This document shows positions 2,952 to 41,220 of a stretch of DNA of 64,000 nt, piece by piece (the first letter of the stretch is position 1; the number at the start of each line of letters is the position of its first letter). The translations under genes were made by a program, and so were the position numbers. The stretch is from an uncultured virus (IMG/VR IMGVR_UViG_3300042937_001207) (Duplodnaviria > Heunggongvirae > Uroviricota > Caudoviricetes): the IMG/VR virus record IMGVR_UViG_3300042937_001207, one strand, 5' to 3'. The notes beneath the pieces were generated by a model. The model was not told the origin of the DNA and made no database searches. It worked only from the letters and a program-made list of their open reading frames with translations.

Positions 2952-3326
2952 TTATGTCAAATAGGCGTAACCAGAGAAAGGTGCAGTAAAAAACACCGTC
3001 ACCTGGGAATCCGTGCTACCAGTATATTGTACTTCACCAGTAACGTTGGTTTGGGCAGAATCAACCACTGTTACTGATGGTTTTCCACCAAGAGTGTGAT
3101 TAATAACCCAAGTTGATGATGCAGCTTGTTGGGTGTGAACATGTCTACGCGCATTGCCGCCCATCGCAGCAAGTCGAACCTGGACATTATTTGGGGCGTC
3201 TTGGTTGACAATTACAGCGTTAGGAGTGTCCTCGTGGACATTTATCTGATTTACACCGTCTTGCGTTACATTGACAAGATTGGGAATGTCATCAAAAATT
3301 ATGACATTATTTGGGGTGTTACTCAC
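2952..3326 (-). CDS. small tail/fibre-associated protein
   Basis: 124 aa with C-terminal HTQ..ASSTWVINHTLGGKPSVTVVDS...FSGYAYL, a common phage beta-domain. Lies in the tail module. Confidence 0.6.
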   Translation of the reverse strand: MSNTPNNVIIFDDIPNLVNVTQDGVNQINVHEDTPNAVIVNQDAPNNVQVRLAAMGGNARRHVHTQQAASSTWVINHTLGGKPSVTVVDSAQTNVTGEVQYTGSTDSQVTVFFTAPFSGYAYLT

Positions 3327-3721
3327 TTGGTAACCTCTGGGATAAGGGTAAAGGTGCCTCTAACCACTTTTGAAACAAAACCATCCGCAGCAATAACCTC
3401 GAGGTCGTAGACGCCACTGGTTGTAATTGATGCCGTAACTGCATCGCTCAAGAATACGTGAATCTGGTTATTTGCTGAGGCGGGATTTATTTCAAGCCTG
3501 CCCGGAGCGCTTGCAGAAAACGAATTAATGTTGACAATTGTTGTGTCTGAGTCAATTGTTCTCCGTATTTGCATTCTGGCAGAATGACCAGATAGGTCAT
3601 AATTTTCAAAAGTGTTCCCTGTGGGGTCAGCTATTAGGTCTGGTTGCTCTATTTTAAAAACACGAAGGAACGTAGAACCCTGTTCACACGTCATATTGTA
3701 AATTCCTGCAATCATTGACAT
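3323..3721 (-). CDS. BppU-like baseplate/fibre adaptor protein
   Basis: 132 aa with EQGSTF...YDLSGHSARMQIR...GVYDLEV...VVRGTFTLIPEVT pattern. Confidence 0.65.
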   Translation of the reverse strand: MSMIAGIYNMTCEQGSTFLRVFKIEQPDLIADPTGNTFENYDLSGHSARMQIRRTIDSDTTIVNINSFSASAPGRLEINPASANNQIHVFLSDAVTASITTSGVYDLEVIAADGFVSKVVRGTFTLIPEVTK

Positions 3722-20162: not shown

Positions 20163-20714
20163 TTACCTATCTGCGTTTGGCGGCCGTTCAAGTGAAGGCA
20201 TTTCGGGCTCACTTGGTGCCTCGATTGGAACCCAGGCCCTAGAGTAAACATGTTCTTTGATTTTGCGCTGTTTTATAACTGTTCCGTCAACCATCGCCGC
20301 AATTTCTGAGTTGCTCATCGTAAGTAGGTCTTTGATTTGTTCAATTGAGTATTTTTTTGAATGGACAACAGAGCGGACAAGGTTTGAGAGGTGTTTAGTG
20401 ACAACCTCGCCCCTGCCACGGTTTAGCCTGACATGCATAAGCATTGCATCCATGTCGTCAACATCCACCAGAACGATTGGAACCTTGCCATTGATTTTTG
20501 ATGACTCCTGCTGTGCGCACAGCCACCTGTGGAATCCATCAATGATTGTCATTGAGCTTTTCTGGACGATTATTGGGCTAACCCACCCAAAATCAATCAT
20601 TGAGCCGGCGAGAACCTTCATGTCTGGCTTCAGCGTGTGGGTGACCCGCCATTCAGCTGGCTTTAACTTTTCTGGTTCAATCCATACGACACTGTTAATT
20701 GGGGAATTTGCCAT
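20163..20714 (-). CDS. ParB/Srx-like protein (IbrB-like)
   Basis: SMIDFGWVSPIIV...IIDGFHRW...HVRLNRGRG, adjacent to the PAPS-reductase gene. Confidence 0.8.
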   Translation of the reverse strand: MANSPINSVVWIEPEKLKPAEWRVTHTLKPDMKVLAGSMIDFGWVSPIIVQKSSMTIIDGFHRWLCAQQESSKINGKVPIVLVDVDDMDAMLMHVRLNRGRGEVVTKHLSNLVRSVVHSKKYSIEQIKDLLTMSNSEIAAMVDGTVIKQRKIKEHVYSRAWVPIEAPSEPEMPSLERPPNADR

Positions 20715-20723
20715 TTAGAAATC

Positions 20724-21887
20724 CTACATTTTCTCGTCTTTGATGTCAAGGGCATCCATGTCTGCAAGTTCTGAAGCTTCCTTCATTGCTAGTGAATAAG
20801 CCTTTGTCCCTGGGCCTATTGGGTGAGGAGAAGTTCCAATGAATTCATGCATCAAAAGATTTCTAATCAACCAATGAACCGGATAGGAAAGCGGTTCCTT
20901 CATGCTCTTTCTACGGAATTCTGCTGAGTACGCAAGTGCTCGCTGCGCCAACCCCTTAGTGAGGATGTTGTCCTCAATGCAACGCCGAACACCGTCCCAG
21001 CCATCTTTTGCGTATCGCATTATGACCATCTCTATGTCATAGTCCGGCCAAATTCTACGCTGTGCGTCTAGATGGGGGAATATTTCCCATAGCCTGTCAT
21101 AGAACTCTGGCTCAGTCGCAACAACATCGCCTATTCTTCTGACTGCAACTGCGTGAAGAGGTATCCCGACGCGTGTGTTACTCCCTGTTGAGGAGGCTAG
21201 GTCGTAATACTCACAATAAGTTCCGCCGTGTTCTTCGACAATAAATTTAAAAACATCATCTGTTGTCCAGTCGTATATTGGCTTTGCAAAACGAAGAGGT
21301 ATGTTCCGTTTTGAACGATAAGGGACAACTATATAGTTTTCGTGAAGTTTTTGAACCAAAGAGCGATAACGAATCATTGACTCATTTGCCCTAACGCCCA
21401 TGACGAACGCAACTTTTCCCTTTTTGCCCTGCATTGTGTAGTAGTCAATCGTCTGGGGTATTGGCTTATTTGGGTCAAGCCCGAAGTCTTCTGCCTTAAT
21501 CGCCCACTCAGGCATCTGGCGTGTTAGACGGCCCTCTCGTGCACGCTGAGCTGACCAAAGCAGACAATACTGCCTTCTGCCCAAAACCCAAACATCCGTT
21601 CCCATGGGCAAGCAGTACCACTCCATGTCAACCCAGTCATAGTCTCTAACTTCTTCAACAAATTTTACAATTGTCGGACTCAGCATTTCCTCGTCACGAA
21701 AAATTACTTTTACCGGACCGAGGTTCCTCTCTTCGTGTATTTCTTTTGCAAGATAGAGGATTGCGGTTGAGTCTTTTCCTCCAGAAAACTGAATGCACAC
21801 TGTGTCAAAAGTGTCGTAAATGTGGCGCATTCTCTCACGAGCTGCATCAACACACGACATTGATAAAAACATTCGCTGTCTAGGCAT
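20724..21887 (-). CDS. PAPS reductase family protein (IbrA-like)
   Basis: PP-loop FSGGKDS, FRDEE, GVRANESMIR and KPIYDWTTDDVFK. Confidence 0.88.
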   Translation of the reverse strand: MPRQRMFLSMSCVDAARERMRHIYDTFDTVCIQFSGGKDSTAILYLAKEIHEERNLGPVKVIFRDEEMLSPTIVKFVEEVRDYDWVDMEWYCLPMGTDVWVLGRRQYCLLWSAQRAREGRLTRQMPEWAIKAEDFGLDPNKPIPQTIDYYTMQGKKGKVAFVMGVRANESMIRYRSLVQKLHENYIVVPYRSKRNIPLRFAKPIYDWTTDDVFKFIVEEHGGTYCEYYDLASSTGSNTRVGIPLHAVAVRRIGDVVATEPEFYDRLWEIFPHLDAQRRIWPDYDIEMVIMRYAKDGWDGVRRCIEDNILTKGLAQRALAYSAEFRRKSMKEPLSYPVHWLIRNLLMHEFIGTSPHPIGPGTKAYSLAMKEASELADMDALDIKDEKM

Positions 21888-22666
21888 TAGAAATCCGCAT
21901 GCGAACGAATGAAGTCAATCAGCTTGGCAGCCGTTGTGTCTCCTATGTACCCAGGGTCATTTCGTATGTAACGAATAAAGTCGTACCAGTCACGCTGTTG
22001 CGTCGAGTCATCAAAAACAAGAGTGTATTGGACTACAGCTTTTTCTCCGCCTTTGATGTTTACTGCAGAGCTACCACGTGTCACTGCCTCCATTTCGTTT
22101 ACTTCATCTGATGCAACATAGATGTTCTCGTCATTTGAGTTTTTTTCAACAGATGGAGCAACATCGTTCTGAGGCTTAAAAGGATTAACTTCTGGTGGTG
22201 CAATATAGCCAGAGCGGTTGTCATTCTTTGAGCTTCTTATATCATCAACAGAAAGTGATGCTATTTCAAAATCATCCCAACCAAGTTTGTCAAAAAGCTC
22301 TCCGTATTCAGAAGAAATGCTGTTGATTAGCTCAATCAATATTGATTGGTCTGTTTCTCCAAGCTCAGAAGTTTTGTTATCTGCCAATGCAAAAGCTACT
22401 GCCGACTTGTCGCTACCGTCAAAGTCAATACATGCTAATTCGGTCCAACCCATTTGTTTTGCGGCTGCAAGTCTGTGGTTTCCAGATATGACAGTAAATG
22501 TTGAATCACCATTATCTTTCACTACTATTGGCGTCACCTGGCCAAATTCTTTGAAAGAAGAAACTATCGCCCCAATATCGCCACGGCGTGGGTTGTTTTC
22601 AAGTGGGCGCAACTGGCTTATGGGTATGGTCATTTCGGAAAGAGATGGATGTATGTTGCTTGTCAT
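21887..22666 (-). CDS. ParB N-terminal domain protein
   Basis: NNPRRGD...SFKEFGQVTPIVV...ISGNHRLAAAK...ALADNKTSELG. Confidence 0.85.
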   Translation of the reverse strand: MTSNIHPSLSEMTIPISQLRPLENNPRRGDIGAIVSSFKEFGQVTPIVVKDNGDSTFTVISGNHRLAAAKQMGWTELACIDFDGSDKSAVAFALADNKTSELGETDQSILIELINSISSEYGELFDKLGWDDFEIASLSVDDIRSSKNDNRSGYIAPPEVNPFKPQNDVAPSVEKNSNDENIYVASDEVNEMEAVTRGSSAVNIKGGEKAVVQYTLVFDDSTQQRDWYDFIRYIRNDPGYIGDTTAAKLIDFIRSHADF

Positions 22667-23119: not shown

Positions 23120-23638
23120 TTACGAATCAATATAGGTCCAGTCAACACTGTCAAGTGCCGATATGTTTAGTTTAGGCCAGTCAAACCGTGATTGTCCATA
23201 GTGAAACAAACCTATTTCTTCTAAAATCCAGGCGTCACACATATCATCGGCCCCGGAGCCAGCCCAGACGATTCCGGTTTTTGCTGATATTGAGGAAACA
23301 ACTTCTGATTTTGCAGCATTGCCCCTTCCGGTGGCAAATTTTGCTCTAACCGTCGGTGGCACATCTATGAAGGGAATTTTAGATTTGAGCAAGCAAAACC
23401 TAACCACACCGCCAAGCTCTCCGATTGAGAAAGCCTGACCGCTCCTAGAAGCAAAAGAGTAACCCTCAATCACTACTATGTCAACTTTACGGCTGACACA
23501 AATTTTAAGTATCTCTTCAGAAATGTCAATGAGCCTTTGAGTCTTTTTATTTTTTGAAGATATGACTCCGTAGTCTCCGCCACATGACCAACCGGTCGAT
23601 GTGAGTGATAGGTCTAAGCCCATTATTGTTTTGCTCAT
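23120..23638 (-). CDS. RuvC-like Holliday junction resolvase
   Basis: IMGLDLSLTSTG, VVIEGYSF, GELGGVV, KFATGRGNAAKSEV and DDMCDA. Start MSKTIMG at 23638. Confidence 0.85.
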   Translation of the reverse strand: MSKTIMGLDLSLTSTGWSCGGDYGVISSKNKKTQRLIDISEEILKICVSRKVDIVVIEGYSFASRSGQAFSIGELGGVVRFCLLKSKIPFIDVPPTVRAKFATGRGNAAKSEVVSSISAKTGIVWAGSGADDMCDAWILEEIGLFHYGQSRFDWPKLNISALDSVDWTYIDS

Positions 23639-23654
23639 TTTGACTAAACTACAC

Positions 23655-23706
23655 CAAAAAGCAAGAAGCCACTGAGGGTTTGATTCCACAGTGGCTCATC
23701 CTTGTA
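23655..23706 (-). terminator. hairpin followed by U-tract (terminator-like)
   Basis: Minus strand caagga-tg-AGCCACTG-loop-CAGTGGCT-tcttg-cttttt. Confidence 0.5.
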
Positions 23707-23835
23707 CAAGGATATTTCTTGCAACGGTTCCCCGCTTAGAAATGGACCACCCCCTCCCTAATTCGTCTTAGGAAATTCTATACCTAGCAGTATTTATAGA
23801 AAGTGGTAATAAATATTCAAATTTCAAAAAGTCTT

Positions 23836-23906
23836 TACACGCAAAAGCCGAGTGCTGCAGGTTGCCCTTCGCACCCGACTTTCGCGCCTATAACGGTCCT
23901 AAGGAT
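23836..23906 (-). ncRNA. candidate structured small RNA
   Basis: 15-bp stem with G-U pairs that close only on the minus strand, capped by agg-GCAA-cct. The 5' single-stranded part is complementary to 23S rRNA, and TATTGT lies ~7 nt upstream. Confidence 0.5.
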
Positions 23907-24044
23907 TACTACAATACACCAAAACTAAATATAAAAAACGTTAAATATAAACAAATTTTTTAGAGTTCTTTTTGAATGTCGCCACCTCATGTATACTTTT
24001 TTTGTGCCCGACTCAACGGCACCAAATCCAAAACAGGAGCAAAA

Positions 24045-24620
24045 ATGTCAACAGCAGTACTCGCACCAACAACCATCACAATGAACATTGCTGGTGGACT
24101 ATCAACGAGCAGCATTGTCACGATGGCTATGCCATTCGCTGGAACAATCACCGGCGCTACCGTCGCAGTCACCACAGCACCAGTAGGTTCGGCACTTACC
24201 GCAGACCTCAAAGTCGGTTCCGGAGTAGCTGCAGCTTTCTCGATTGCCGCCGCTGGAACTTCGGATGCAGGCTCTTTGAACACAGCATCTTATGCAGTCA
24301 CAAACAAAGCCCTAACAAGCAACGTAGCAACACTCACCACAGCAGCACACGGCTACAAGGTGGGCGATGTTGTGAGAGTGGCCGGTGTAGGATTTCCGTT
24401 TGATGGCAACCACACAATCACGGCTGTAGGTTCAACAACAACATTCTCGTACGCAAAGATAAATACAAACGTGTCCTCGGTGGCTTCGTCTGGTGGAACT
24501 GCTGTTTCAACAAGCACAGTCCAATTCGCAGAAGGCGATTTGGTGAGTCTTGATGTATCGGCTGTTGGTTCGAGCACTGCGGGTTCAAACATGACAGTAG
24601 CATTCACTGTTGAGAGCTAA
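24045..24620 (+). CDS. putative virion decoration protein
   Basis: ATG at 24045 after AGGAG, with TATACT -10 near 23993. 191 aa, A/T/S/V/G-rich beta protein with an inserted TTAAHGYKVGDVVRV domain. Confidence 0.6.
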   Translation: MSTAVLAPTTITMNIAGGLSTSSIVTMAMPFAGTITGATVAVTTAPVGSALTADLKVGSGVAAAFSIAAAGTSDAGSLNTASYAVTNKALTSNVATLTTAAHGYKVGDVVRVAGVGFPFDGNHTITAVGSTTTFSYAKINTNVSSVASSGGTAVSTSTVQFAEGDLVSLDVSAVGSSTAGSNMTVAFTVES

Positions 24621-24695: not shown

Positions 24696-24998
24696 TTAAT
24701 CTTCCCAGCCATGTTTCGCTAATCCCAAATCAAAAGCTAGTTGAGGGTAGTTTCCTATTCTAGTGTGGCACGGTCTGCAAACGCATATTATGTTGTCTTC
24801 ATCAAGAATCGAGCCACCCTGAGAGCGTCGTTTTAGCTCATGCAAATCAGAAGACATGTTTCGCTGGTACATCTTCTTGCCGTCGTGTTCAGCAAAAACG
24901 GGGCATGCCTCACAGTAGGGTTTCTCCTCAAGAAGCTTTACGACCAGCTTCCTCCGCTCAGCATACTCTTTTTCTTTTTTGCTTGACCTATATCTCAA
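24696..24998 (-). CDS. HNH endonuclease
   Basis: CEAC...DLHELKRRSQGG...DNIICVCRPCH. Confidence 0.85.
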   Translation of the reverse strand: MRYRSSKKEKEYAERRKLVVKLLEEKPYCEACPVFAEHDGKKMYQRNMSSDLHELKRRSQGGSILDEDNIICVCRPCHTRIGNYPQLAFDLGLAKHGWED

Positions 24999-31366: not shown

Positions 31367-31455
31367 TTTATACAAACATACTCACTTTATATAAACAAAA
31401 TAAAAAGCTTCACAAAAACAGAAACAACTCGTTTATCATTGATGACTAGGTGAAC

Positions 31456-34400
31456 ATGACTAACACGCACGAAACAGACGCAGACTACGAATATAAGTCC
31501 CTAACAGGGCAATTCAACATTGACGAAGCTCTCGGCATAGTCGAGTGCTTTGCTGCTGGTGTTGGGAATAAGGACTCTGTTGGCGATATTTGCCTCCCAG
31601 GGTGCTTTACAAATTCTTTGAAAAGAAGAAAGCCCCGGGTCGTATGGGGTCACAATTGGAATGAGCCAATCGGCAAAGTTTTGGAAATCTATGAAGTTGG
31701 TCCAAACGACCCTCGTCTTCCAGCAAAGATGAGAAAAGCCGGAATAGGTGGCCTTTATGCAAGAGTCCAATTTAATCTCAAAGCCGAAAGAGGCCGTGAG
31801 GCATTTGCAAATGTGTCATTCTTTGGTCTTGAGCAGGAGTGGTCAATAGGCTACAAAACTCTTGATGCAGTCTTTGACCCAACCCAGCAAGCAAACCTTT
31901 TGAAAGAAGTTGAGCTGTACGAGGTTTCTCCAGTTCTTCATGGAGCCAACCAGCTGACAGGCACTATCTCAATTAAATCGGATGAAGCTGTTAACGAAAA
32001 CAAAGATGGAATAGACGTAAAGCGTCAACCACTAAGAGACCCAAAGGGCGGTTTGACAGCAGCCGGTCGTGCTCATTTCAAGAGAACAGAAGGCGCAAAT
32101 CTAAAGCCTGGCGTTAAGGGTCCAGCTGACACACCAGAAAAGATGCGCCGCAAGGGTTCATTCCTCACAAGATTTTTTACAAACCCATCTGGCCCAATGA
32201 AGAAACCAAATGGAGAACCAACAAGACTTGCTCTTTCGGCGGCTGCATGGGGTGAGCCAGTTCCAAAGAATATGGAAGACGCTGCAAAACTTGCTGCAAA
32301 AGGAAGAAGACTTCTTGAGCGTTATAGCAATACAAAGAAAAAAGATGACAGCGAAAACTCGGAAACAAAGAACCATGTAAACGCAATTTACGAGGCAATG
32401 AACAGTGCAGAAAACTCCGTAGTTGGAAGAGCTGCCGACCTCACAAGAGCACTTGCTTCACACTTTGGCGGAGCGGTGAGACTTGTTAATGCCGATAACG
32501 ACATTGCAATTTTTGAGATGGGTGCCGGTCAGTCTGTTGAGACACTAAGAGTCGCTTACCACTTTGATGGTGACGAGTTCATGTTCGGAACGGCGCAACA
32601 AGTAAAACCAGAAACCGTCTACATTCCGGTTAACGGCTCAAATGGAAGCAGGGTTGGTGACAGCGGTGTTTCTAACGCAATGACTATTGCAATGAGTCCA
32701 GTTGGAGGTAGCTTGTACGACGCAATGTCTTTGGCTGCAGTTCCACATGACGCATGCTGCGACGATTGCGCAAAAGGGGAAAGTTCTTGTTCTGTAACAA
32801 AACAGCTGAGCACGCTAGAAGAATTTAAATCTTCAAATGCAGGAGAACACCTAATCCTAGTTCCAGAAGATAACAGCGAAAAAATTTCTGCTTTTGAAAT
32901 GATTAACCCAATTGCCCAGTATCACGAATTTGAAGTAAAAGTTCTCGAAAATGGAATTGTCATTCCGGATATCAACAATGTAAGCGCTGATGGTTACGAG
33001 GCTCTTTCTAATGTACTAAATGTTTTTGAGCAGAAAGCTATTGGCACTGCAATCGGAAAAACTCCAAGAAACATGAATGCGTGGACTGCTCGCAACGCTG
33101 ATAGTGACCCGTATGTTCTTGAGGGCATATCAACGATAAACAGAGGGCGCGGCGTAATTGACCCAACACCAGGGAGTGATTTTGGTATCCCAAAAGCACC
33201 AAAGTCAAGAGGCAAGAGGGGCGCATCTAAACCAAGACGCGCTAAGAGACCTGGCGAAGCAGACATGCCAGCTGTACCAAGACCAGTTGAAGTACCAGAA
33301 GAAATCCCAGAAATACAACCAGCGAAGCCAGCAATAAAACCGGCAAGACCAGCAACAGTTCCAGAAAGAAAACCAGACAAGGTTCCAGAACGTACACCCC
33401 AAAAAGAACCAGACAAGGTTCCTGAGCGTTGGCCTCAAAGGGAGCCCGAAAGAGTTCCACGGCCAACTCCTGCGCCACCACGCGTACCCGAAAGAGAGCC
33501 AGTCCCCGTACCACGACGAGACCCACAAAGAGTTCCTGAAAGAGTTCCGCAAAGAACCCCACAGAGGGCTTCAACTAGCCCAGTTGGCAGAATGTCGGAC
33601 GGTAGAAGATTCCCTAAGGAGCAACGTCCAGTCGATATGGATATGGCGGAAGAGGTATTTGACCGCTTTAATACCATTTCAAAAAACAAAAACACAGCAC
33701 GGGCGTATGAAGAGGTGGCCCGTAAGTTTGGCATTTCTCCTAGAACAGTTGAAAGATATATCAACGAAATGGGAAGAAGAAACAATAGGGACCTCCCTTA
33801 TGTTAAGCGACCAGAAGATGCTGGTGTCAAGGATGTTGATTCACCGCGTGGAAAAATGTCCTCAATACAAAGTGATTCCGACCTGTCACCTAGAGAAAAA
33901 AGAAGACTAAAAGAAGACAAAATAGGAAGACAGATATTCTTAGCAAGAGACAACGAGGGAATTTCGCTTGATGAAGCAGCATCAAGATTCAAGGTTTCGA
34001 GACAGAAAGCAAGACAGCTTGAACTAAGACACATGTCAAAGCTTCGTGGTCTTGACGAAAACAGTCCAAACAGAATCACCAGAAGAATGCTTGATGACCC
34101 TGCCTCAACTCTTACTGACGAACAAACAGATTTGATGAAGAGAAGACTTGATGGGGAAACTCTTCAAGAAGCAGCAGCAAGACTTGGCACGGATAGACAA
34201 ACAATAAGACGGCAAGAACAAATTGCAATGAGAAAGTTGCAAGACTCCATGGTAATTGACAATGGGCCAGTTGGCTCAATGGCAAATGCAAAATGGACGG
34301 AGTCAATAAGGGCAGCCGAGTCTGTCGACGATTTAAAAGGTCAAGATAGAAGCTTAGGCGAAAAACCTTTTAGCAGAATTTTCTACAGTGCCCCAGTTGG

Positions 34401-37400
34401 AAGAATGTCGGGCGGCGATGAAATCATTGACTTTGGTGACGAGTTCGGAGTAGTACGGTTTGGAACTGACGACGAAGAGGAAGATGCTGCTTTATTATTT
34501 GGTGAAGACGAGGTAATTTTTGATAGAGGCGACGGAAGTAAACCCGTTGTTGAGCGCGAAAGAATCCCATTATCAAAACCAGACGCAACACCAGCAGCCC
34601 CTGGGAAAACACGACTCCGTGGAGATGGAATCACGTGGGATTCAAAACCAACAACTTCGGGGCGGCCAATAATAGAAGTCACTCCACCGGTCATAACACC
34701 ATCCGCCCCAAGTCCATCAAGACTTCGTGGAACTGCAGTTGCACCAGAGACAACCCCGGAACGAACAAGACTACGTGGCACAGGAATTTCTATTGAAGCA
34801 GTACCCACTTTTTCTAGAGACCTTCCTGATACAAGGGCAGTTCCGCCAACGCCAATGTCAGTGACTGATTTGACAGACGACAAACCAATAGAGTATTTAA
34901 AGTTTGAGTCGTTGCCAAGACCAGAAGATACATGGTCTTATCAAAAAGGCTCAGATGAAGCAAACAACGCAATTGCTGATGCGCTTACAAGGGCTATTTT
35001 GGGTAGAGAAACACAATTGGATGTTGATTTAATAGACGAACTTCAAACAGCAGATGAATCAAGACTGATTAGCTCCATTGCTAAGAAAAAAATTAAAGAA
35101 GAAATTCCAAAACTTGACGATGAATCGCTTTTGGTAAGAAAAGAAGCAATCAATGAAACTATTCAAGCATGGAAAGACGACATCAAAGAGCTGTTTGACG
35201 AAAAAAGAACTGCTCGCAACAATAGAGATTTCATAGAATATCAAGAGATACAAGACAGCATTGATTTTGCAATGCCATTATTGACATCTTCAGAAGAACT
35301 GTTGGATGACGTAAATAAGGAAATAGCTAAACGAGGTCTTGTTTCAGGTCCTGTAGGAAAAATGTCTTCGTATGAAAGAGCTCTTCCGGATGGTTTTGCA
35401 TCTGAAGTTTTTGACTCAACTGGTCGTAAGAAGAGTTACTTAAAACAAAATGACTCTGATGACGCAGAGCTTGACGAGTATCTACCGAACATAATTAACA
35501 GCTTCTTGAGCAATTTCTCATTGACTGGAGAACCTTATTCTGGCAACAACTCTCCAGATGGTCCTTCTGGAGCAGTAAAAGCAATAAACAGAATTATCAG
35601 CAATAACAACAATGAAGAAAGTTCATACCCAGAAAAGCTGATGAGGAATGTTTACTCAAGTTTTGGAAATTCTCCAATTGAGCAAATAGCAAAACAAAAT
35701 GATATTTCAAGAGAAGATGTTGTAAAAATTGTAAAGGCTCAGGCAAATATTCTGTCCGCAACAGAGACTCCAGAGCGCTCTGAGATGCGATATCTAATGA
35801 GAGAACACGGATATCTGCTCGCAGGAACAGACAGAGACATAATGTCTCAAAAACTTTATGGAGCAACAAATGCGGATATTGCAAAAGACTTTAATTTAAG
35901 AATTGATGATGTTGATTCAAGACTTACAAAGTCTTTGCGAACTCTTAGAAAAGCAGATGGCTCAACGTCAAAGCCGCCATCTGTTTCAAACACCAGATAC
36001 GGAGTTGACGACGAAGGATTTTTTGTTGAAGCAGATGCAAGCGACGGCAGTTTCTACAAAAAGTACATAGGCAGGACCGAGCTTGGAGATGAAATAGATG
36101 ATTATTTTTCACCCGGCCCAGTTGGTGCCATGGCGATTCGACAGAACAAAAAAGTACGAATTTATGCCAATGCAGACGATGGGATAGTAGAAGAATACGA
36201 CTTTACAGAAGACCTTGCTGACGGTGTTCCAATGCAGGAGAAGCCATACCTCCGCAGAGTGCGTGGATTCAACCAACCAGAACTGCACGAAATGTTGGGC
36301 AGAAAACTTTTGGCAGAAGATGGTGGATACAACTACATGGTTGTTGATACTCCAGAGTATTCATTTGTTACTCAAACTGAGGCTCAGGCAATGGCTAGAG
36401 CTGCTGAGCGTGGAATGTTCCTTGACGATGAAATGTTTCCACAAGGTTTATTCCTTAACTCAGATGGAACCGAAGAATTGCGTCCTATACCAATTCAAAC
36501 TTCTCCAAGAGAAGGTTTGAGAGTTGTTTCATGGAATGACCGTGCTGGATACGATGGCGAGCCATCTTACTTCAGACTCGGCGGTACAGTTTTTGCAACT
36601 TCTGACATGTCTGAAAGCTGGGACGAGAGTGAAAGAAATGCAAAGCGAGTAGCTAGAAATAAGAAGTTGAGAAGACTTGAAAGTGGCCCCGATGAAAAAT
36701 TCTGGACCAAAGACTCGTGGAAGTGGAGATTCCAGGGCAGTGACGACTTGTCTGTTACAAAAAGTCCAAATACTCCAGACTTCGGTCCTTCGGTGATAGA
36801 AAAAATTCACACACTTAGAAATAGTCCAGATTTTGATGCTCTTAGAGCAACAGTAAACTCAAAAGATAAAAAAGACCTTACTGGACCAGAAAAGAACTAT
36901 TCAGTACTAAGCGATATGTACTACCAGTACGCAAAAAATGGCGGTCTTTCAGATAGACAGTGGTCTTACGCATCGTCATTGATTGACAAGTTCGAAAGCG
37001 GAGACGGTGGATACACTCTTGCACCAGGCGAAGAAGCTGTACTTAAAGTAAATAAAGAAACTGGCGAAATGCTGGGCGCAGACCCAGAAGATGCAAAACG
37101 TTTAGTAAATGCTGCACGAATGCTCGAACAGGATGATGCAGAGATTGAAAAAATTCTGTATAGGTACGACATTGATGGTGGATTGATGCCAGAGCAGTGG
37201 GACAGACTACGTGCTCTCACAAAGCAGAGAATGACAGAGAATAGAGCAGCACGGCAGGCTGGTCAAGCATCTGCAAGACCAAGCGCCCCAACAGTTGGCG
37301 TTAGTGCACCAAGTATTGATAAATCAGAAGTTGAAGACGATGGAAAACTTGTTTCTACTTATGTGAATAAGTTGACCGGCGAAATTACAAAGTACAGACA

Positions 37401-40400
37401 TAAAAATGTTGGTGCAAATGCTAATGGCCCAGTATTTTTGGTTGCAGAAGACGACAATGGCAATTTGGTCAAATGGAATCACCCAGTAGCTGGCGACCTG
37501 TTCTCATATGAAGACTGGCCACAAGAAGAGCTTGGTGAAATCTTTGATGAAACTACAGAAAAGATTAGAACCCAAAGAGGAAGACATCCAGCAACAGATG
37601 GCGTATTTATTTCGGCAAAGCCATGGGAAATTGAAGCAGACTTAAGGACGAAGGCTGGAGAAACAGTAACCGCACAAGAACTAAAGAGCGAGTACGAAAA
37701 ACTTGGTCTTTATGGTCTTGGCTCTGATTCATCCGGTCCAGTCATTGAAACCGACACTGAAATAATCCTTGGTAAAAACTTTACTGAATCAGACATTAGA
37801 AAAGCAATTAATGATGCAAGCGATTCTGGTCTTAAAATTTCTTTTGAATACCTAAAACCAGATGCAGACAGACCAGAAAAAAGAACATTGACTGAACCAA
37901 GATATGAAGAGCGTCTTGGGAAAAACGGTGAGATTCTTGCTGCATACATCGTCGGAATTGATGAAAAAGACGGTAAAGAAAAGAATTTCAGAACCGACAG
38001 AATATATGGCCGAAAATCTGAAAAACCAAAACCTCAGACGGATGACGAACAGCAAGCTGGATTCAGAAGACCTCGCCAAGACACGAAGAGACCAAGAGGC
38101 GAGTCAGAGAGAGAACCTCGTCGTCGTCCTAGCGACCAAGAATCGGACCGTCGTCAAGAGCAGTCACGGCCCAGTGACGAACAAGCACCACCAAGAGAGG
38201 AAGCAACCCCGAATCAAGAGCAAGCAAGACCAAGAGAACGCCAAACGGAAAGACAAAAAAGAACTGCTGAAATAATCTCAAGAACAAATTCTCTTAGAAG
38301 AGGTTTGCGAGAAAGGTCTCTGTTTATATCACTTGACGACAACCAGCAAACGGTTGCCAGTACACTCGCTACAGCTGACCGAGATGTCCTTGATGTTGAA
38401 TTTCCATATGGAAATAAAGTCTATGCTGTTGAACTTGTTAAGTTTGTAAAGAATGCTGATGGGAACGTCTCACTGCATGCTACAGATAAATCAGATAGTC
38501 AAAGAAAAATATTTGACCCGTACATGATTGCAGTAAGGTCTAGCTCCGAGCCAGTACCAACAGCTTTGCCTTATTTGCTTGAAGACCTAAGCCGCAGAAT
38601 TGGCAGTGACCAGAGAAGTTTTGCATTAGCCAGTGCTTCAGATATAGCCGCATACAATAGGGCAAAAGAAAAACTTGCTAGAGCTAGTAGACAAAACCAA
38701 ATAAACAGTTTTGATACTGGGCCACACGGAGCGCTTGGGTTGAATGCATCGCGTGTACCTAACTACTCGCCAACAGAGTTCTGGAAACCAAACAAACACG
38801 ATTCAACATATGCATCAATGCCATATGCTCAACGAAAAGCTGAATCACAAAGATTGCTGTCTAGAATACTCAACTCCGCAAACAGGAATGATTCACAACT
38901 CAATGACGTTCTTGATAGATATGTAGCACTCGAAAGAATAACCAAAACAGCAAACGGTCCATATGTTGACGAGTTTGGGGTTTCAATTACAAGACTTGAA
39001 AATGGCGAATACGAGATTTCTGGAAACATCCCGTTTGACCCAGAAATGAATTCTTCTCCGTTTGGGAAAATGGGCAGATATGTAAGGCCTAGAGATGCCC
39101 AAGAAAGAGTAATTGACGATTCTTACAATATTCAAATTTACAATGAGTTGACAGATTTGCTCAGCTCCGTGCCTGAGGGGCAAGCAATAGCTCAGCTGTC
39201 GCAGAGACATTCTACAAGTCAGCAAAACATAAGAAGAAGGCTAAATGTTGTTGACAGAGAAAGAGCAAATGAAATACGCTCACTTGATTCGGTTGACGAA
39301 ATAATAAGTCAACTTGAATCCGGAGACATAACATTTGACGAATTAGAAATGCGAATTGACTCCGACATGAGTCCAAGACAATTAATTAGAAATATTGATT
39401 ACGCATACCGTGAAATGAATTTCCAGCATGATGATTTTGGACCTGTTGGAGCCATGTCTGGCAAAAACACATCTGACATGTCAGACCAAGAACTCGTTGA
39501 TGCGTGGAACGATGCAATGGAAAAACTTTTTGGTTCTTATGGAAGACCACACAGGAAAGATAGAGCGGCAAAGTCGGCTCTAATGAAAGAACTCAAGTCG
39601 GTGGGAAGAGAAATTCAAAAAAGGTATTTTGAATCAGAAGATGCAAGAACTTTAATTAACGAAATAAAGCAAAACCCACCTCAGAGTCCGGCTGGTCTTA
39701 TGTCTTCAGGCTCAATGCCAGATAATCCAATTAGTGGTAGCAGACATGTTGACAGAAGACTTTATGAAGTTTACGGAGATGACAACTGGAAAAAAGTTGC
39801 CGAGCAAATTGGCCGAAGGTTCTCAAACATTGAGGAAAGAGACTGGGAAAACCCAACAGACGACGACCTAATTGACTTGCACCAGTACTTGACTCAAAGG
39901 ATATTTGATTCACACATGAGCGGCGAGGAACAGGGTGAACTTGGCGGGATACCCCTTGACATCCTCTCTGTGTCCGGGGATTTAGACATAACCCCAAATC
40001 AGGTTGTGGAATACTCCAAAAAAGGAAAAGACATAACTGAAGCACGTATAGCTGCTTTGATGACTCCGTTTGAAAGGGCTGAACGGATGATTCAAAACGA
40101 CAGACGTAAAACATTTGAGAGATTGATTTCAAGAAAACGAGCAGAGCTTGGTGAAGGTTTTTCTGATTGGTTCCAATCTGCTACTGAAAAAAATAAAAAT
40201 ATACTTTTTGATTCAAATGGCAATGAACGCTCAGTTGAAGAAATAGACGAATTAGGCGGACCTTTTGCTGGGTATTTCTCTTTTGGGCAAGAAACGACTG
40301 AGCCTGATGTTGATGTTGACACGGCTAGAGAAATTGAAGAACTTAACAAGTTGTTTAATAGTCCTACATTTGGTTCTGATGATGGAGATAGCAGCCCTGC

Positions 40401-41220
40401 TGGAAACATGGCTAGGCGATTTGTCCCACAAAGATACGACATTAGGCCCACAAACGATGGCAAATGGGAAATAATAGATACCGCAAACAGAAATGTTGTA
40501 GTTAGTCGTCCATTTGATAGCAGGCTAGAAGCTCTCGCTGGAGCTAAAAAGATGGACATGGGTGACACATCGTTCAATCCTTTTGCTCCACCAAAAGTTT
40601 TTGAACAAAAACCACCAAGCAGGCCTCAAGCAAATCCAAATCCAATAATTGAGTCTGGCGTTTACGAAAACGAACAGCCAGAGCTACCTTTTTCTGACGG
40701 CCCATTTGGTGAAATGAGAAGAATACCTGGAAGTAGGTATGTTTCAAATGACCCAGTTCGCAGAAATGGTGCAAGAGTAACAAAGGGCAACGCAGAAGCT
40801 GCAATAAGGGAATATGAAGAAGGCGACGCCGTGCTGCCTTTTGGTGGAGCAGAAGAGGCATCAGAATACATGCTCTTCTCTGGATGGACAGCCTCAGATG
40901 CTGCTTTGGACACGATAATTGGAAGACTTGAGTATTTGTCAAAAATGAGAACTCATGCCGGAGATGCCCGGGACAAAAAGAAAGCAGAAGTAAGAAAACT
41001 TGTTTCATATCTTCCAAAACTCCAGAAGCGCAGAAAATGGTTTTTCCTTCAGCTTAGAAGACAAATGCTCGAAAATAGAGACATAGATGGAGTTTCTCAA
41101 ATTGACGCAATGGAAAAAACGAGGAGCGGTTTCACTCTTGAGGACCCAATAACAATGAACTCTGCTAATTTCCCAAGATACAACATACCCGGAATCACTG
41201 TTCCGAGAGATAGAAGGTAA
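31456..41220 (+). CDS. giant multidomain protein with N-terminal HK97-family prohead protease
   Basis: WGHNWNEPIG, EWSIGY and LYEVSPVLHGAN in the first ~175 aa. Followed by a DUF6321-like domain, sigma4-like HTHs and WYL domains. ATG at 31456 after AGGTG. Confidence 0.88.
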   Translation: MTNTHETDADYEYKSLTGQFNIDEALGIVECFAAGVGNKDSVGDICLPGCFTNSLKRRKPRVVWGHNWNEPIGKVLEIYEVGPNDPRLPAKMRKAGIGGLYARVQFNLKAERGREAFANVSFFGLEQEWSIGYKTLDAVFDPTQQANLLKEVELYEVSPVLHGANQLTGTISIKSDEAVNENKDGIDVKRQPLRDPKGGLTAAGRAHFKRTEGANLKPGVKGPADTPEKMRRKGSFLTRFFTNPSGPMKKPNGEPTRLALSAAAWGEPVPKNMEDAAKLAAKGRRLLERYSNTKKKDDSENSETKNHVNAIYEAMNSAENSVVGRAADLTRALASHFGGAVRLVNADNDIAIFEMGAGQSVETLRVAYHFDGDEFMFGTAQQVKPETVYIPVNGSNGSRVGDSGVSNAMTIAMSPVGGSLYDAMSLAAVPHDACCDDCAKGESSCSVTKQLSTLEEFKSSNAGEHLILVPEDNSEKISAFEMINPIAQYHEFEVKVLENGIVIPDINNVSADGYEALSNVLNVFEQKAIGTAIGKTPRNMNAWTARNADSDPYVLEGISTINRGRGVIDPTPGSDFGIPKAPKSRGKRGASKPRRAKRPGEADMPAVPRPVEVPEEIPEIQPAKPAIKPARPATVPERKPDKVPERTPQKEPDKVPERWPQREPERVPRPTPAPPRVPEREPVPVPRRDPQRVPERVPQRTPQRASTSPVGRMSDGRRFPKEQRPVDMDMAEEVFDRFNTISKNKNTARAYEEVARKFGISPRTVERYINEMGRRNNRDLPYVKRPEDAGVKDVDSPRGKMSSIQSDSDLSPREKRRLKEDKIGRQIFLARDNEGISLDEAASRFKVSRQKARQLELRHMSKLRGLDENSPNRITRRMLDDPASTLTDEQTDLMKRRLDGETLQEAAARLGTDRQTIRRQEQIAMRKLQDSMVIDNGPVGSMANAKWTESIRAAESVDDLKGQDRSLGEKPFSRIFYSAPVGRMSGGDEIIDFGDEFGVVRFGTDDEEEDAALLFGEDEVIFDRGDGSKPVVERERIPLSKPDATPAAPGKTRLRGDGITWDSKPTTSGRPIIEVTPPVITPSAPSPSRLRGTAVAPETTPERTRLRGTGISIEAVPTFSRDLPDTRAVPPTPMSVTDLTDDKPIEYLKFESLPRPEDTWSYQKGSDEANNAIADALTRAILGRETQLDVDLIDELQTADESRLISSIAKKKIKEEIPKLDDESLLVRKEAINETIQAWKDDIKELFDEKRTARNNRDFIEYQEIQDSIDFAMPLLTSSEELLDDVNKEIAKRGLVSGPVGKMSSYERALPDGFASEVFDSTGRKKSYLKQNDSDDAELDEYLPNIINSFLSNFSLTGEPYSGNNSPDGPSGAVKAINRIISNNNNEESSYPEKLMRNVYSSFGNSPIEQIAKQNDISREDVVKIVKAQANILSATETPERSEMRYLMREHGYLLAGTDRDIMSQKLYGATNADIAKDFNLRIDDVDSRLTKSLRTLRKADGSTSKPPSVSNTRYGVDDEGFFVEADASDGSFYKKYIGRTELGDEIDDYFSPGPVGAMAIRQNKKVRIYANADDGIVEEYDFTEDLADGVPMQEKPYLRRVRGFNQPELHEMLGRKLLAEDGGYNYMVVDTPEYSFVTQTEAQAMARAAERGMFLDDEMFPQGLFLNSDGTEELRPIPIQTSPREGLRVVSWNDRAGYDGEPSYFRLGGTVFATSDMSESWDESERNAKRVARNKKLRRLESGPDEKFWTKDSWKWRFQGSDDLSVTKSPNTPDFGPSVIEKIHTLRNSPDFDALRATVNSKDKKDLTGPEKNYSVLSDMYYQYAKNGGLSDRQWSYASSLIDKFESGDGGYTLAPGEEAVLKVNKETGEMLGADPEDAKRLVNAARMLEQDDAEIEKILYRYDIDGGLMPEQWDRLRALTKQRMTENRAARQAGQASARPSAPTVGVSAPSIDKSEVEDDGKLVSTYVNKLTGEITKYRHKNVGANANGPVFLVAEDDNGNLVKWNHPVAGDLFSYEDWPQEELGEIFDETTEKIRTQRGRHPATDGVFISAKPWEIEADLRTKAGETVTAQELKSEYEKLGLYGLGSDSSGPVIETDTEIILGKNFTESDIRKAINDASDSGLKISFEYLKPDADRPEKRTLTEPRYEERLGKNGEILAAYIVGIDEKDGKEKNFRTDRIYGRKSEKPKPQTDDEQQAGFRRPRQDTKRPRGESEREPRRRPSDQESDRRQEQSRPSDEQAPPREEATPNQEQARPRERQTERQKRTAEIISRTNSLRRGLRERSLFISLDDNQQTVASTLATADRDVLDVEFPYGNKVYAVELVKFVKNADGNVSLHATDKSDSQRKIFDPYMIAVRSSSEPVPTALPYLLEDLSRRIGSDQRSFALASASDIAAYNRAKEKLARASRQNQINSFDTGPHGALGLNASRVPNYSPTEFWKPNKHDSTYASMPYAQRKAESQRLLSRILNSANRNDSQLNDVLDRYVALERITKTANGPYVDEFGVSITRLENGEYEISGNIPFDPEMNSSPFGKMGRYVRPRDAQERVIDDSYNIQIYNELTDLLSSVPEGQAIAQLSQRHSTSQQNIRRRLNVVDRERANEIRSLDSVDEIISQLESGDITFDELEMRIDSDMSPRQLIRNIDYAYREMNFQHDDFGPVGAMSGKNTSDMSDQELVDAWNDAMEKLFGSYGRPHRKDRAAKSALMKELKSVGREIQKRYFESEDARTLINEIKQNPPQSPAGLMSSGSMPDNPISGSRHVDRRLYEVYGDDNWKKVAEQIGRRFSNIEERDWENPTDDDLIDLHQYLTQRIFDSHMSGEEQGELGGIPLDILSVSGDLDITPNQVVEYSKKGKDITEARIAALMTPFERAERMIQNDRRKTFERLISRKRAELGEGFSDWFQSATEKNKNILFDSNGNERSVEEIDELGGPFAGYFSFGQETTEPDVDVDTAREIEELNKLFNSPTFGSDDGDSSPAGNMARRFVPQRYDIRPTNDGKWEIIDTANRNVVVSRPFDSRLEALAGAKKMDMGDTSFNPFAPPKVFEQKPPSRPQANPNPIIESGVYENEQPELPFSDGPFGEMRRIPGSRYVSNDPVRRNGARVTKGNAEAAIREYEEGDAVLPFGGAEEASEYMLFSGWTASDAALDTIIGRLEYLSKMRTHAGDARDKKKAEVRKLVSYLPKLQKRRKWFFLQLRRQMLENRDIDGVSQIDAMEKTRSGFTLEDPITMNSANFPRYNIPGITVPRDRR
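33034..33171 (+). repeat. shared peptide module A, copy 1
   Basis: KAIG...TARNADSDPYVLEGISTINRGRGVIDPTP, nearly identical in protein to 43586-43723. Confidence 0.85.

Follow-up and report, generated by a model that had tools for sequence, protein, structure and literature searches.

Comparative analysis shows that the minus strand of the DNA studied here, a stretch of 64,000 nucleotides from an uncultured phage (the window), encodes RNA-1, a structured and conserved RNA about 75 nt long, whose presumed ends lie at roughly 23904 and 23826, and in which a predicted single-stranded front end of 17 nt is joined directly to a covarying hairpin. This front end, the seed CCUUAGGACCGUUAUAG (23888..23904, minus strand), is the exact complement of 23S rRNA from the loop of helix 69 through the 5' strand of helix 70. 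As the free front end of RNA-1 is an exact complement of a highly conserved 23S stretch, the phage probably acts on the ribosomal RNA of its host by means of an RNA.

On the plus strand, positions 23888-23904 read CTATAACGGTCCTAAGG, and the minus strand carries the complementary seed. A preliminary description of the window had identified this word with 17 nt of 23S rRNA, correctly so, as the same word occurs in a true actinobacterial 23S gene, that of a 1.6-Mb genome (L241, gene positions 2027-2043); it is also present in a 23S fragment (L097). In E. coli numbering the 17-mer spans C1914-G1930, from the helix 69 loop to helix 70, and it is the core of a known homing-endonuclease site (I-CeuI). 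In the window the identity to 23S ends exactly at the 17-mer and the flanks differ. The word is matched only once in the 64 kb, even if up to 3 mismatches are allowed (shuffled sequences give an expectation of 0.04), so that no phage target is seen within the window. The computed energy of the duplex between seed and target is -29.2 kcal/mol. The element sits in an intergenic region of 406 bp, with a RuvC-like gene (minus strand) on one side and an ORF of 191 aa (plus strand) on the other.

Structure, strand and presumed ends of RNA-1

The hairpin (23839..23887, minus strand) has 17 base pairs and an inner GCAA loop, and the fold bears out the earlier remark that the stem directly abuts the seed on this strand. 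The predicted energy of the minus-strand fold is -39.1 kcal/mol (z = -3.45), as compared with -20.9 kcal/mol (z = -1.34) for the plus strand. Covariation was scored for a stem of 14 pairs in an alignment of 37 distinct seed-plus-hairpin sequences (A2). In this alignment 99.4% of the stem cells are paired, and compensatory changes, affecting both sides of a pair, are found in 12 of the 14 pairs; none of 500 shuffles matched the values of the stem, and these collapse when the register is slid. The covariation test of the hairpin that the preliminary description had called for is thus positive, and strand-specific as well: the A2 stem holds 114 G-U cells when read on the minus strand of the window and not a single A-C cell, which would be a G-U pair on the plus strand. 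That G-U pairs work only in the minus orientation, at first noted for the window alone, therefore holds across the family. Since the two folds agree with this asymmetry, the minus strand is the one from which RNA-1 is read, and as far as base pairing can tell the question of the strand is settled, with selection acting on a minus-strand transcript. A covariance model built from A2 (R1) recovers the element at 23827-23904 (minus strand) with 71.7 bits (E = 4.5e-17), as a single copy in the window. In the folds predicted for the 62 unique family members, at least 12 of the 17 seed bases are unpaired in 43.

Upstream of RNA-1 lies a promoter-like box, TTAACGTTTTTTATATTT (23927..23944, minus strand), the pattern of which was taken from relatives, where it reads TTGACAC/TTAACAC TTTCAGTATT, and the role of which as a promoter is putative. 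This pattern has two matches only in the 64 kb; they lie on the minus strand, at 23944 and at 23809, and either one precedes an RNA. The -10-like hexamer TATTGT (23911..23916, minus strand), pointed out before, does precede the seed and ends 6 nt ahead of it; of the 62 unique family members, 42 have a TAnnnT motif at -12 and another 6 have one at -13, a placement by which the RNA would start at about the first base of the seed. At the other side, 8 nt past the stem, a U5 tract (23826..23830, minus strand) offers a possible 3' end, and a run of at least four U within 15 nt after the hairpin is present in 32 of the 62 members. At the element in the window, TATTGT and U5 included, a consensus scan called no sigma-70 promoter and no terminator, and in some relatives the RuvC start is only 77 nt away from the seed. 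Given the lack of consensus signals, the U run in only about half of the members and the nearness of RuvC, the RNA may belong to a longer mRNA; judged by these signals, RNA-1 may be a leaky stand-alone unit or may be processed from an operon transcript.

The Rfam check proposed earlier returned no family: at gathering scores there was no match in the window, nor, apart from tRNAs, in 20 related loci, and at E values up to 10 the region 23640-24045 gave three weak matches only, all far below gathering scores. Several known classes of RNA were tried and rejected. ARAGORN found 0 tRNA or tmRNA genes in the window, again without a match in Rfam, and the covariance model of group I introns, which does detect a real intron in L242, had no match in the window, which speaks against an intron or a fragment of one. 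An rRNA fragment or contamination was dismissed because the 23S identity ends at the 17-mer, and because among the 119 listed loci with the 17-mer only L097 continues as rRNA. With R1 in single copy and the 17-mer present once, the element is no CRISPR RNA or repeat mimic in the window, and with no gene opposite in the 406-bp intergenic region it is no cis-antisense RNA of the OOP type. As to box C/D guide RNAs, the C box RUGAUGA is seen in 0/37 sequences, the D box CUGA in 1/37 and both together in 0/37. A toxin decoy was discarded as well, as the family does not conserve a U in front of the seed, by which UCCUU would arise.

Conservation of the seed and its match to 23S rRNA

When the IMG/VR viral contigs were scanned for the exact 17-mer, at least 119 loci were found. 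Among the 119 listed, one is true 23S rRNA (L097), and 107 show the layout of the window, i.e. a -10-like TAnnnT box, the 17-mer, and a hairpin from the next base onwards. These 107 consist of 94 loci of the window class and 13 of a second class; the remaining 11 include unrelated gene contexts with a longer match to 23S. The combination of 17-mer and hairpin, which the preliminary description suggested looking for in relatives, is hence kept in more than 100 viral contigs. As a control, the adjacent and equally conserved 23S word GTCGGGTAAGTTCCGAC was scanned in the same way and gave only 14 viral loci, versus at least 119 for the seed 17-mer.

In some of these contigs the complementarity to 23S is longer than in the window. 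It amounts to 20 nt in the 3' UTR of a ribonucleotide-reductase-like gene (L024) and to 23 nt at a site flanked by a small ORF and a convergent lysozyme gene (L069), in both cases followed by a hairpin and U7; to 22 nt (L026/L066) and 25 nt (L001) next to tRNA genes; and, in the second class, to 19 nt in Watson-Crick pairs or 28 nt with G-U pairs (L062). The additional complementarity grows in different directions in different gene contexts. Such independent extension points to selection for pairing with 23S rRNA or with its gene, as chance does not predict it. The reservation of the preliminary description, that the 17-mer might be a chance match, can consequently be ruled out, both by the extension of the 23S match to 20-28 bases elsewhere and by the control word with its 14 viral matches.

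In order to obtain a sample free of bias, I collected 574 relatives by means of an alignment of 13 RuvC proteins (A1, 51-82% identical) and took the best 80 of them. Among these best 80 of 574, picked by RuvC alone, the element is present in 39. The exact seed is found upstream of RuvC in 23 of the 80 loci, one seed change in 9 (A8G in 6, U15C in 3) and two changes, A8G plus U12C, in 7, and no seed within 5 mismatches was found upstream of RuvC in 41, 4 of which have truncated flanks. The seed changes in the RuvC-picked loci are confined to positions 8, 12 and 15, with A8G the commonest, while the stem varies freely; in alignment A2, with its 37 distinct sequences, 14 of the 17 seed columns are invariant. 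The A8G variant retains a G-U pair with rRNA, and the U12C and U15C variants would give C-A mismatches with canonical rRNA. No host group with a 23S change compensating U12C or U15C was found in the genome scan and in 301 Actinomycetota genomes, a tally that takes in five unpublished genomes (G050, G090, G122, G176 and G270), with no claim depending on these five by themselves. The complement of a seed variant, CTATARCGGCCCTAAGG, occurs at only 36 genome loci in many scattered taxa, 5 of them in a true 23S context, and the natural 23S variants in the Actinomycetota, with a match in 160 of the 301 genomes, are CCAUC and CCGUC, not those needed. The seed variants are therefore not explained by variation of the host 23S.

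The second class of seed RNAs comprises 13 loci (L014, L027, L035, L036, L038, L062 and relatives) with ferredoxin-like and nuclease-like neighbours. In this class 12 seed bases pair with UAGCGGUCU behind the hairpin, and the long stem that results sequesters the seed.

Neighbouring genes and further RNAs at the HNH-RuvC spot

The downstream neighbour of RNA-1 is a RuvC-like Holliday junction resolvase (23120..23638, minus strand; phrog_159, E = 3e-31; Pfam RuvC, 25.5 bits), and the usual upstream neighbour is an HNH endonuclease (24696..24998, minus strand; phrog_15522, E = 3e-15). The element lies upstream of RuvC in 60 and downstream of HNH in 59 of 79 loci, all on one strand. In the window the ORF of 191 aa (24045..24620, plus strand; no PHROG or Pfam match), relatives of which occur in 22 of the 79 loci, is inserted between HNH and the element, and box, seed and hairpin stay together all the same. 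In at least 10 related loci HNH runs straight into RuvC, with no intergenic RNA. Since there are relatives in which HNH and RuvC overlap, or in which other RNAs occupy the spot, RNA-1 behaves as an inserted module that is independent of both nucleases. A Pfam search found no domain of an RNA-binding partner in six neighbouring proteins.

The window encodes a tailed phage, with genes for sheath, tube, baseplate, portal and large terminase, in addition to Erf-like, exonuclease, ParB-like and PAPS-reductase genes. At 20163-22666 (minus strand), near the recombination genes, a PAPS-reductase-like gene (phrog_2302, E = 3e-75) lies between two ParB-like genes, a gene set known from freshwater actinophages. 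Further on, at 31450-41220 (plus strand), there is an ORF of 3256 aa, in which only the first ~285 residues match a known family, a head maturation protease (phrog_80).

Directly downstream of RNA-1 there is a candidate gene for a second RNA, RNA-2 (23656..23809, minus strand), which has the same promoter-like box upstream as RNA-1 (23792-23809) and a core, GGGAGGGGGUGGUCC, at 23744-23758. Its predicted transcript extends over about 23770-23656 (minus strand), with a hairpin and, reaching to about 23656, a terminator made up of a stem-loop and U5. The family (alignment A3, 19 sequences) has an invariant GUG.UC inside GGGAGGGGGUGGUCC. When the core of 22 nt was paired with 1528 windows of an rRNA operon, the 3' tail of 16S rRNA was the best duplex in 12 of the 19 members and ranked among the top 10 in all 19; for the window's own core the duplex with the 16S tail has an energy of -30.2 kcal/mol. 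A long-range RNAduplex comparison of the first 60 nt of RNA-2 with whole rRNAs was no better than shuffles. The position of RNA-2 next to RNA-1 and the complementarity of its core to the 16S tail suggest a two-RNA programme against host ribosomal RNA.

In related phages the promoter-like box is followed by other RNAs at this spot. Eight loci (L143, L146, L150, L154, L163, L164, L168 and L185) have a GC-rich, structured RNA of ~150 nt, without a match in Rfam, that is located ~150 nt upstream of RuvC behind the same box. It starts with CAGGUAACUCGACAAGG, followed by GGAGGGGGUGAUCC, and so combines complements of 23S helix 70/71 and of the 16S tail. In L181, L183, L188 and L199, at ~100 nt upstream of RuvC, a TACAAT box is followed by ACCCGACAAGG and a terminator hairpin with U5; ACCCGACAAGG is complementary to 11 nt of 23S immediately past helix 70, a match that taken alone is within chance.

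Proposed action on host rRNA and rival readings

The closest isolates to the phage are actinophages (TerL ~42% and RuvC ~31% identity), and all 20 of the 20 listed public runs that contain the stretch are lake water metagenomes, with no RNA run among them. From this I infer that the host is a freshwater actinobacterium. The element, defined as GCRY plus the 17-mer, has 0 copies in 185,579 species genomes, and hence no prophage gives a host; a DNA search of isolate phage genomes found nothing similar, and a second search only chance fragments. Small actinobacterial genomes, the likely hosts, carry the exact 17-mer target in their 23S. Shine-Dalgarno-like pairing was found at 38% of 45 phage gene starts, with the start codons taken roughly, versus 8% of random positions, and strong Shine-Dalgarno leaders are present at many phage genes, those for tail tube and sheath included. 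By these proportions the phage is not mainly leaderless, and the idea of a leaderless bias was dropped. With such leaders of its own, a general block of the ribosome or of the 16S tail would hurt the phage too.

The reading I prefer, to which I would give about an even chance, is that RNA-1 is a trans-acting antisense RNA directed against unassembled 23S rRNA at helix 69/70. In this model RNA-1 would be made from its own promoter, or be cut from the transcript of the HNH-RuvC operon, presumably within an early or middle block of DNA metabolism, and would pair in trans with helix 69 (the 3' half of its loop and its 3' strand) and with the 5' strand of helix 70 of 23S. Helix 69 forms a bridge to the small subunit, and in E. 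coli the 17 nt targeted include modified uridines. In the mature ribosome the target stretch is base-paired, which counts against an antisense action, as do the two seed variants that would give C-A mismatches and the sequestered seed of the second class; as the stretch is folded and modified in the finished ribosome, the most likely substrate would be nascent or late-assembly 23S. Pairing could then stop helix 69/70 from forming, or yield a duplex open to cutting by RNase III; in both cases the host's new 50S subunits would be held up or broken down, and the existing ribosomes would go on translating phage mRNA. The site is vulnerable, as a PNA against 23S helix 69 is reported to block translation and growth of E. 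coli (PMC12828698, citing Kulik 2017). The PNA resembles RNA-1 in being antisense to the same helix; it is man-made and short, though, whereas RNA-1 is natural, reaches into helix 70 and has a hairpin.

Alternatively, RNA-1 and RNA-2 could bind rRNA where it is exposed, on helix 69 of the free 50S and on the 16S 3' tail, and reprogramme translation or serve counter-defence, either by biasing ribosomes towards certain phage mRNAs or by shielding, or competing for, rRNA sites that are attacked by toxins. The two RNAs share a box found only twice in the window, and the best predicted partner of the RNA-2 core is the 16S 3' tail with its anti-Shine-Dalgarno sequence. In PMC5408214, moreover, actinobacterial toxins of the MazF family are described to cut 23S helix/loop 70 in the 50S, not in the 70S, and the 16S anti-Shine-Dalgarno sequence as well, i.e. 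both of the regions that the phage RNAs complement or adjoin. Unlike these toxins (MazF-mt3 and MazF-mt6), which are RNases made of host protein, RNA-1 is a phage RNA, and its seed ends 9 nt before the UUCCU cut site. Relatives' RNAs at the spot carry CGACAAGG(AAU) or ACCCGACAAGG and so complement the helix 70/71 stretch with the UUCCU site, but with 330 nt compared against 4.6 kb each of these 11-mers alone is within chance, the U that would complete a toxin site before the seed is variable, and no toxin or antitoxin gene is seen nearby. A block of the 16S tail would also be costly for a phage with many strong Shine-Dalgarno leaders of its own, and I consider reprogramming or counter-defence unlikely. 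Somewhat further down the scale, and quite improbable in my view, is a cis element of the HNH-RuvC operon that acts either at the end of HNH (3' UTR or terminator) or ahead of RuvC (5' leader or attenuator), with the 17-mer kept as a site for a protein or an RNase and its identity to 23S due to chance or to a captured scrap of rDNA. A terminator-like hairpin is to be expected between genes of an operon, the place between HNH (59/79) and RuvC (60/79) is fixed and on one strand, the RuvC start can be as near as 77 nt past the seed, and among ~250,000 windows a few 17-mers must match rRNA by chance. Such an element would not account for the seed adjoining unrelated genes in other phages, where the 23S match is 20-28 nt, nor for the excess of the seed 17-mer over the control 17-mer (at least 119 versus 14 viral loci); box, seed and hairpin are kept together where the opposite-strand gene of 191 aa parts HNH from the element, and relatives in which HNH overlaps RuvC need no element at all.

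The two remaining readings concern DNA. RNA-1 might form an R-loop at rRNA genes, by which their transcription would be blocked, or guide the HNH and RuvC nucleases to rDNA, as a split relative of the IscB type, which would fit a guide-like 5' segment of 17 nt that abuts a hairpin, the HNH and RuvC-fold genes that flank it in about 60 of 79 loci, and the many mobile elements that target the same 23S site, such as the group I intron of L242 after U1931. However, both proteins are small and belong to ordinary phage families (phrog_15522; phrog_159, Pfam RuvC), no RNA-binding domain was found nearby, and the seed is also present in phages without HNH or RuvC neighbours. A guided nuclease, a role suggested in the preliminary description, is made unlikely by the at least 10 related loci that keep HNH and RuvC without an RNA, and an action on DNA as a whole has a very small probability. 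Smaller still is that of a palindromic site in the DNA, for packaging (cos), as an origin or for a homing endonuclease, with no RNA involved. The 17-mer is the core of a homing-endonuclease site, and HNH genes often adjoin the cos site in cos phages, but the longer homing site is represented by 17 bp only, with different flanks, viral contigs among the matches listed do not end at the element, and the 114 G-U cells on one strand versus 0 on the other, a sign of selection on a single-stranded minus-strand transcript, effectively exclude such a site.

Returning to the antisense reading, RNA-1 can be compared with small RNAs of known function. RybB and OmrA/B are trans-encoded, base-pairing sRNAs with a 5' seed and a terminator hairpin, and RNA-1 is like them in its short length, its invariant, single-stranded 5' seed, its stable 3' hairpin that is often followed by U, and its gene between protein genes. 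It is unlike them in that its presumed partner is rRNA instead of mRNA, and that its seed of 17 nt is perfect and joins the hairpin without a spacer. Actinobacteria, the likely hosts, are not known to have Hfq. Like lambda OOP and CopA/CopT, RNA-1 is an antisense RNA, small and with a hairpin, that belongs to a mobile element, and its duplex may be a substrate of RNase III; those RNAs are cis-antisense to an opposite gene, whereas nothing is encoded opposite RNA-1 and its complement is host rRNA. The box C/D and H/ACA guides of archaea and eukaryotes have rRNA complementarities of 10-21 nt, comparable with that of RNA-1, but the RNA-1 family is without C/D boxes, and no partner proteins of these guides are known in bacteria or phages. 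A full-text search of the literature, judged from titles and abstracts, brought up no report of a phage RNA that is complementary to rRNA. The phage small RNAs known so far regulate mRNAs, and none is known to target rRNA.

It is conceivable, although I would put it at somewhat less than even, that small RNAs pairing directly with the rRNA of the host have been acquired more than once by lake phages without close kinship, among them actinophage-like myoviruses and large phages rich in tRNAs, and that the locus in the window is a takeover system made of RNA only, with RNA-1 directed at 23S and RNA-2 at 16S. If so, production and use of ribosomes would be stopped or reprogrammed, in a class of virus-host interaction that is undescribed for bacterial viruses. 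The helix 69/70 target is the intersubunit bridge and ranks among the most highly conserved words of RNA in all of biology. Should the pairing be real, phages would manipulate the assembly or function of ribosomes with bare RNA, which would offer a testable route to the way in which lake phages take over slow-growing hosts, to natural antisense inhibitors of the ribosome and to the parts of assembling ribosomes that are accessible in vivo. The RNA-1 family is in addition a clean candidate for an Rfam entry, with its strong covariation and its settled strand.

In L242, a 1.4-Mb actinobacterial genome, a group I intron (3120-3397; Rfam, 56.9 bits) follows right after the 17-mer plus U in 23S. 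The guide of this intron, GCCUUAG, pairs with the same 23S bases, CUAAGGU, as does the front of the seed; unlike the intron, RNA-1 is without a ribozyme core, and its complementarity is 17 nt and not ~7. In genomes of Myxococcota, cyanobacteria and Bacteroidota (L200-L202, L204, L206, L207, L213, L217, L223, L225, L227, L229, L232 and L234) I observed a 23S-like word with one T-to-C change, GTAA-CTATAACGGCCCTAAGG-TAGCGA or near variants, between non-rRNA flanks and with a hairpin after it, which may represent intron-flanked micro-exons or an rRNA mimic. Finally, viral loci L252, L255, L246 and L243/245/249/250/251/254 carry sense-like copies of 23S helix 70-71, of up to ~45 nt, within non-rRNA flanks, and in L255 the copy is followed by a terminator-like hairpin; these copies may be rRNA mimics rather than antisense RNAs.
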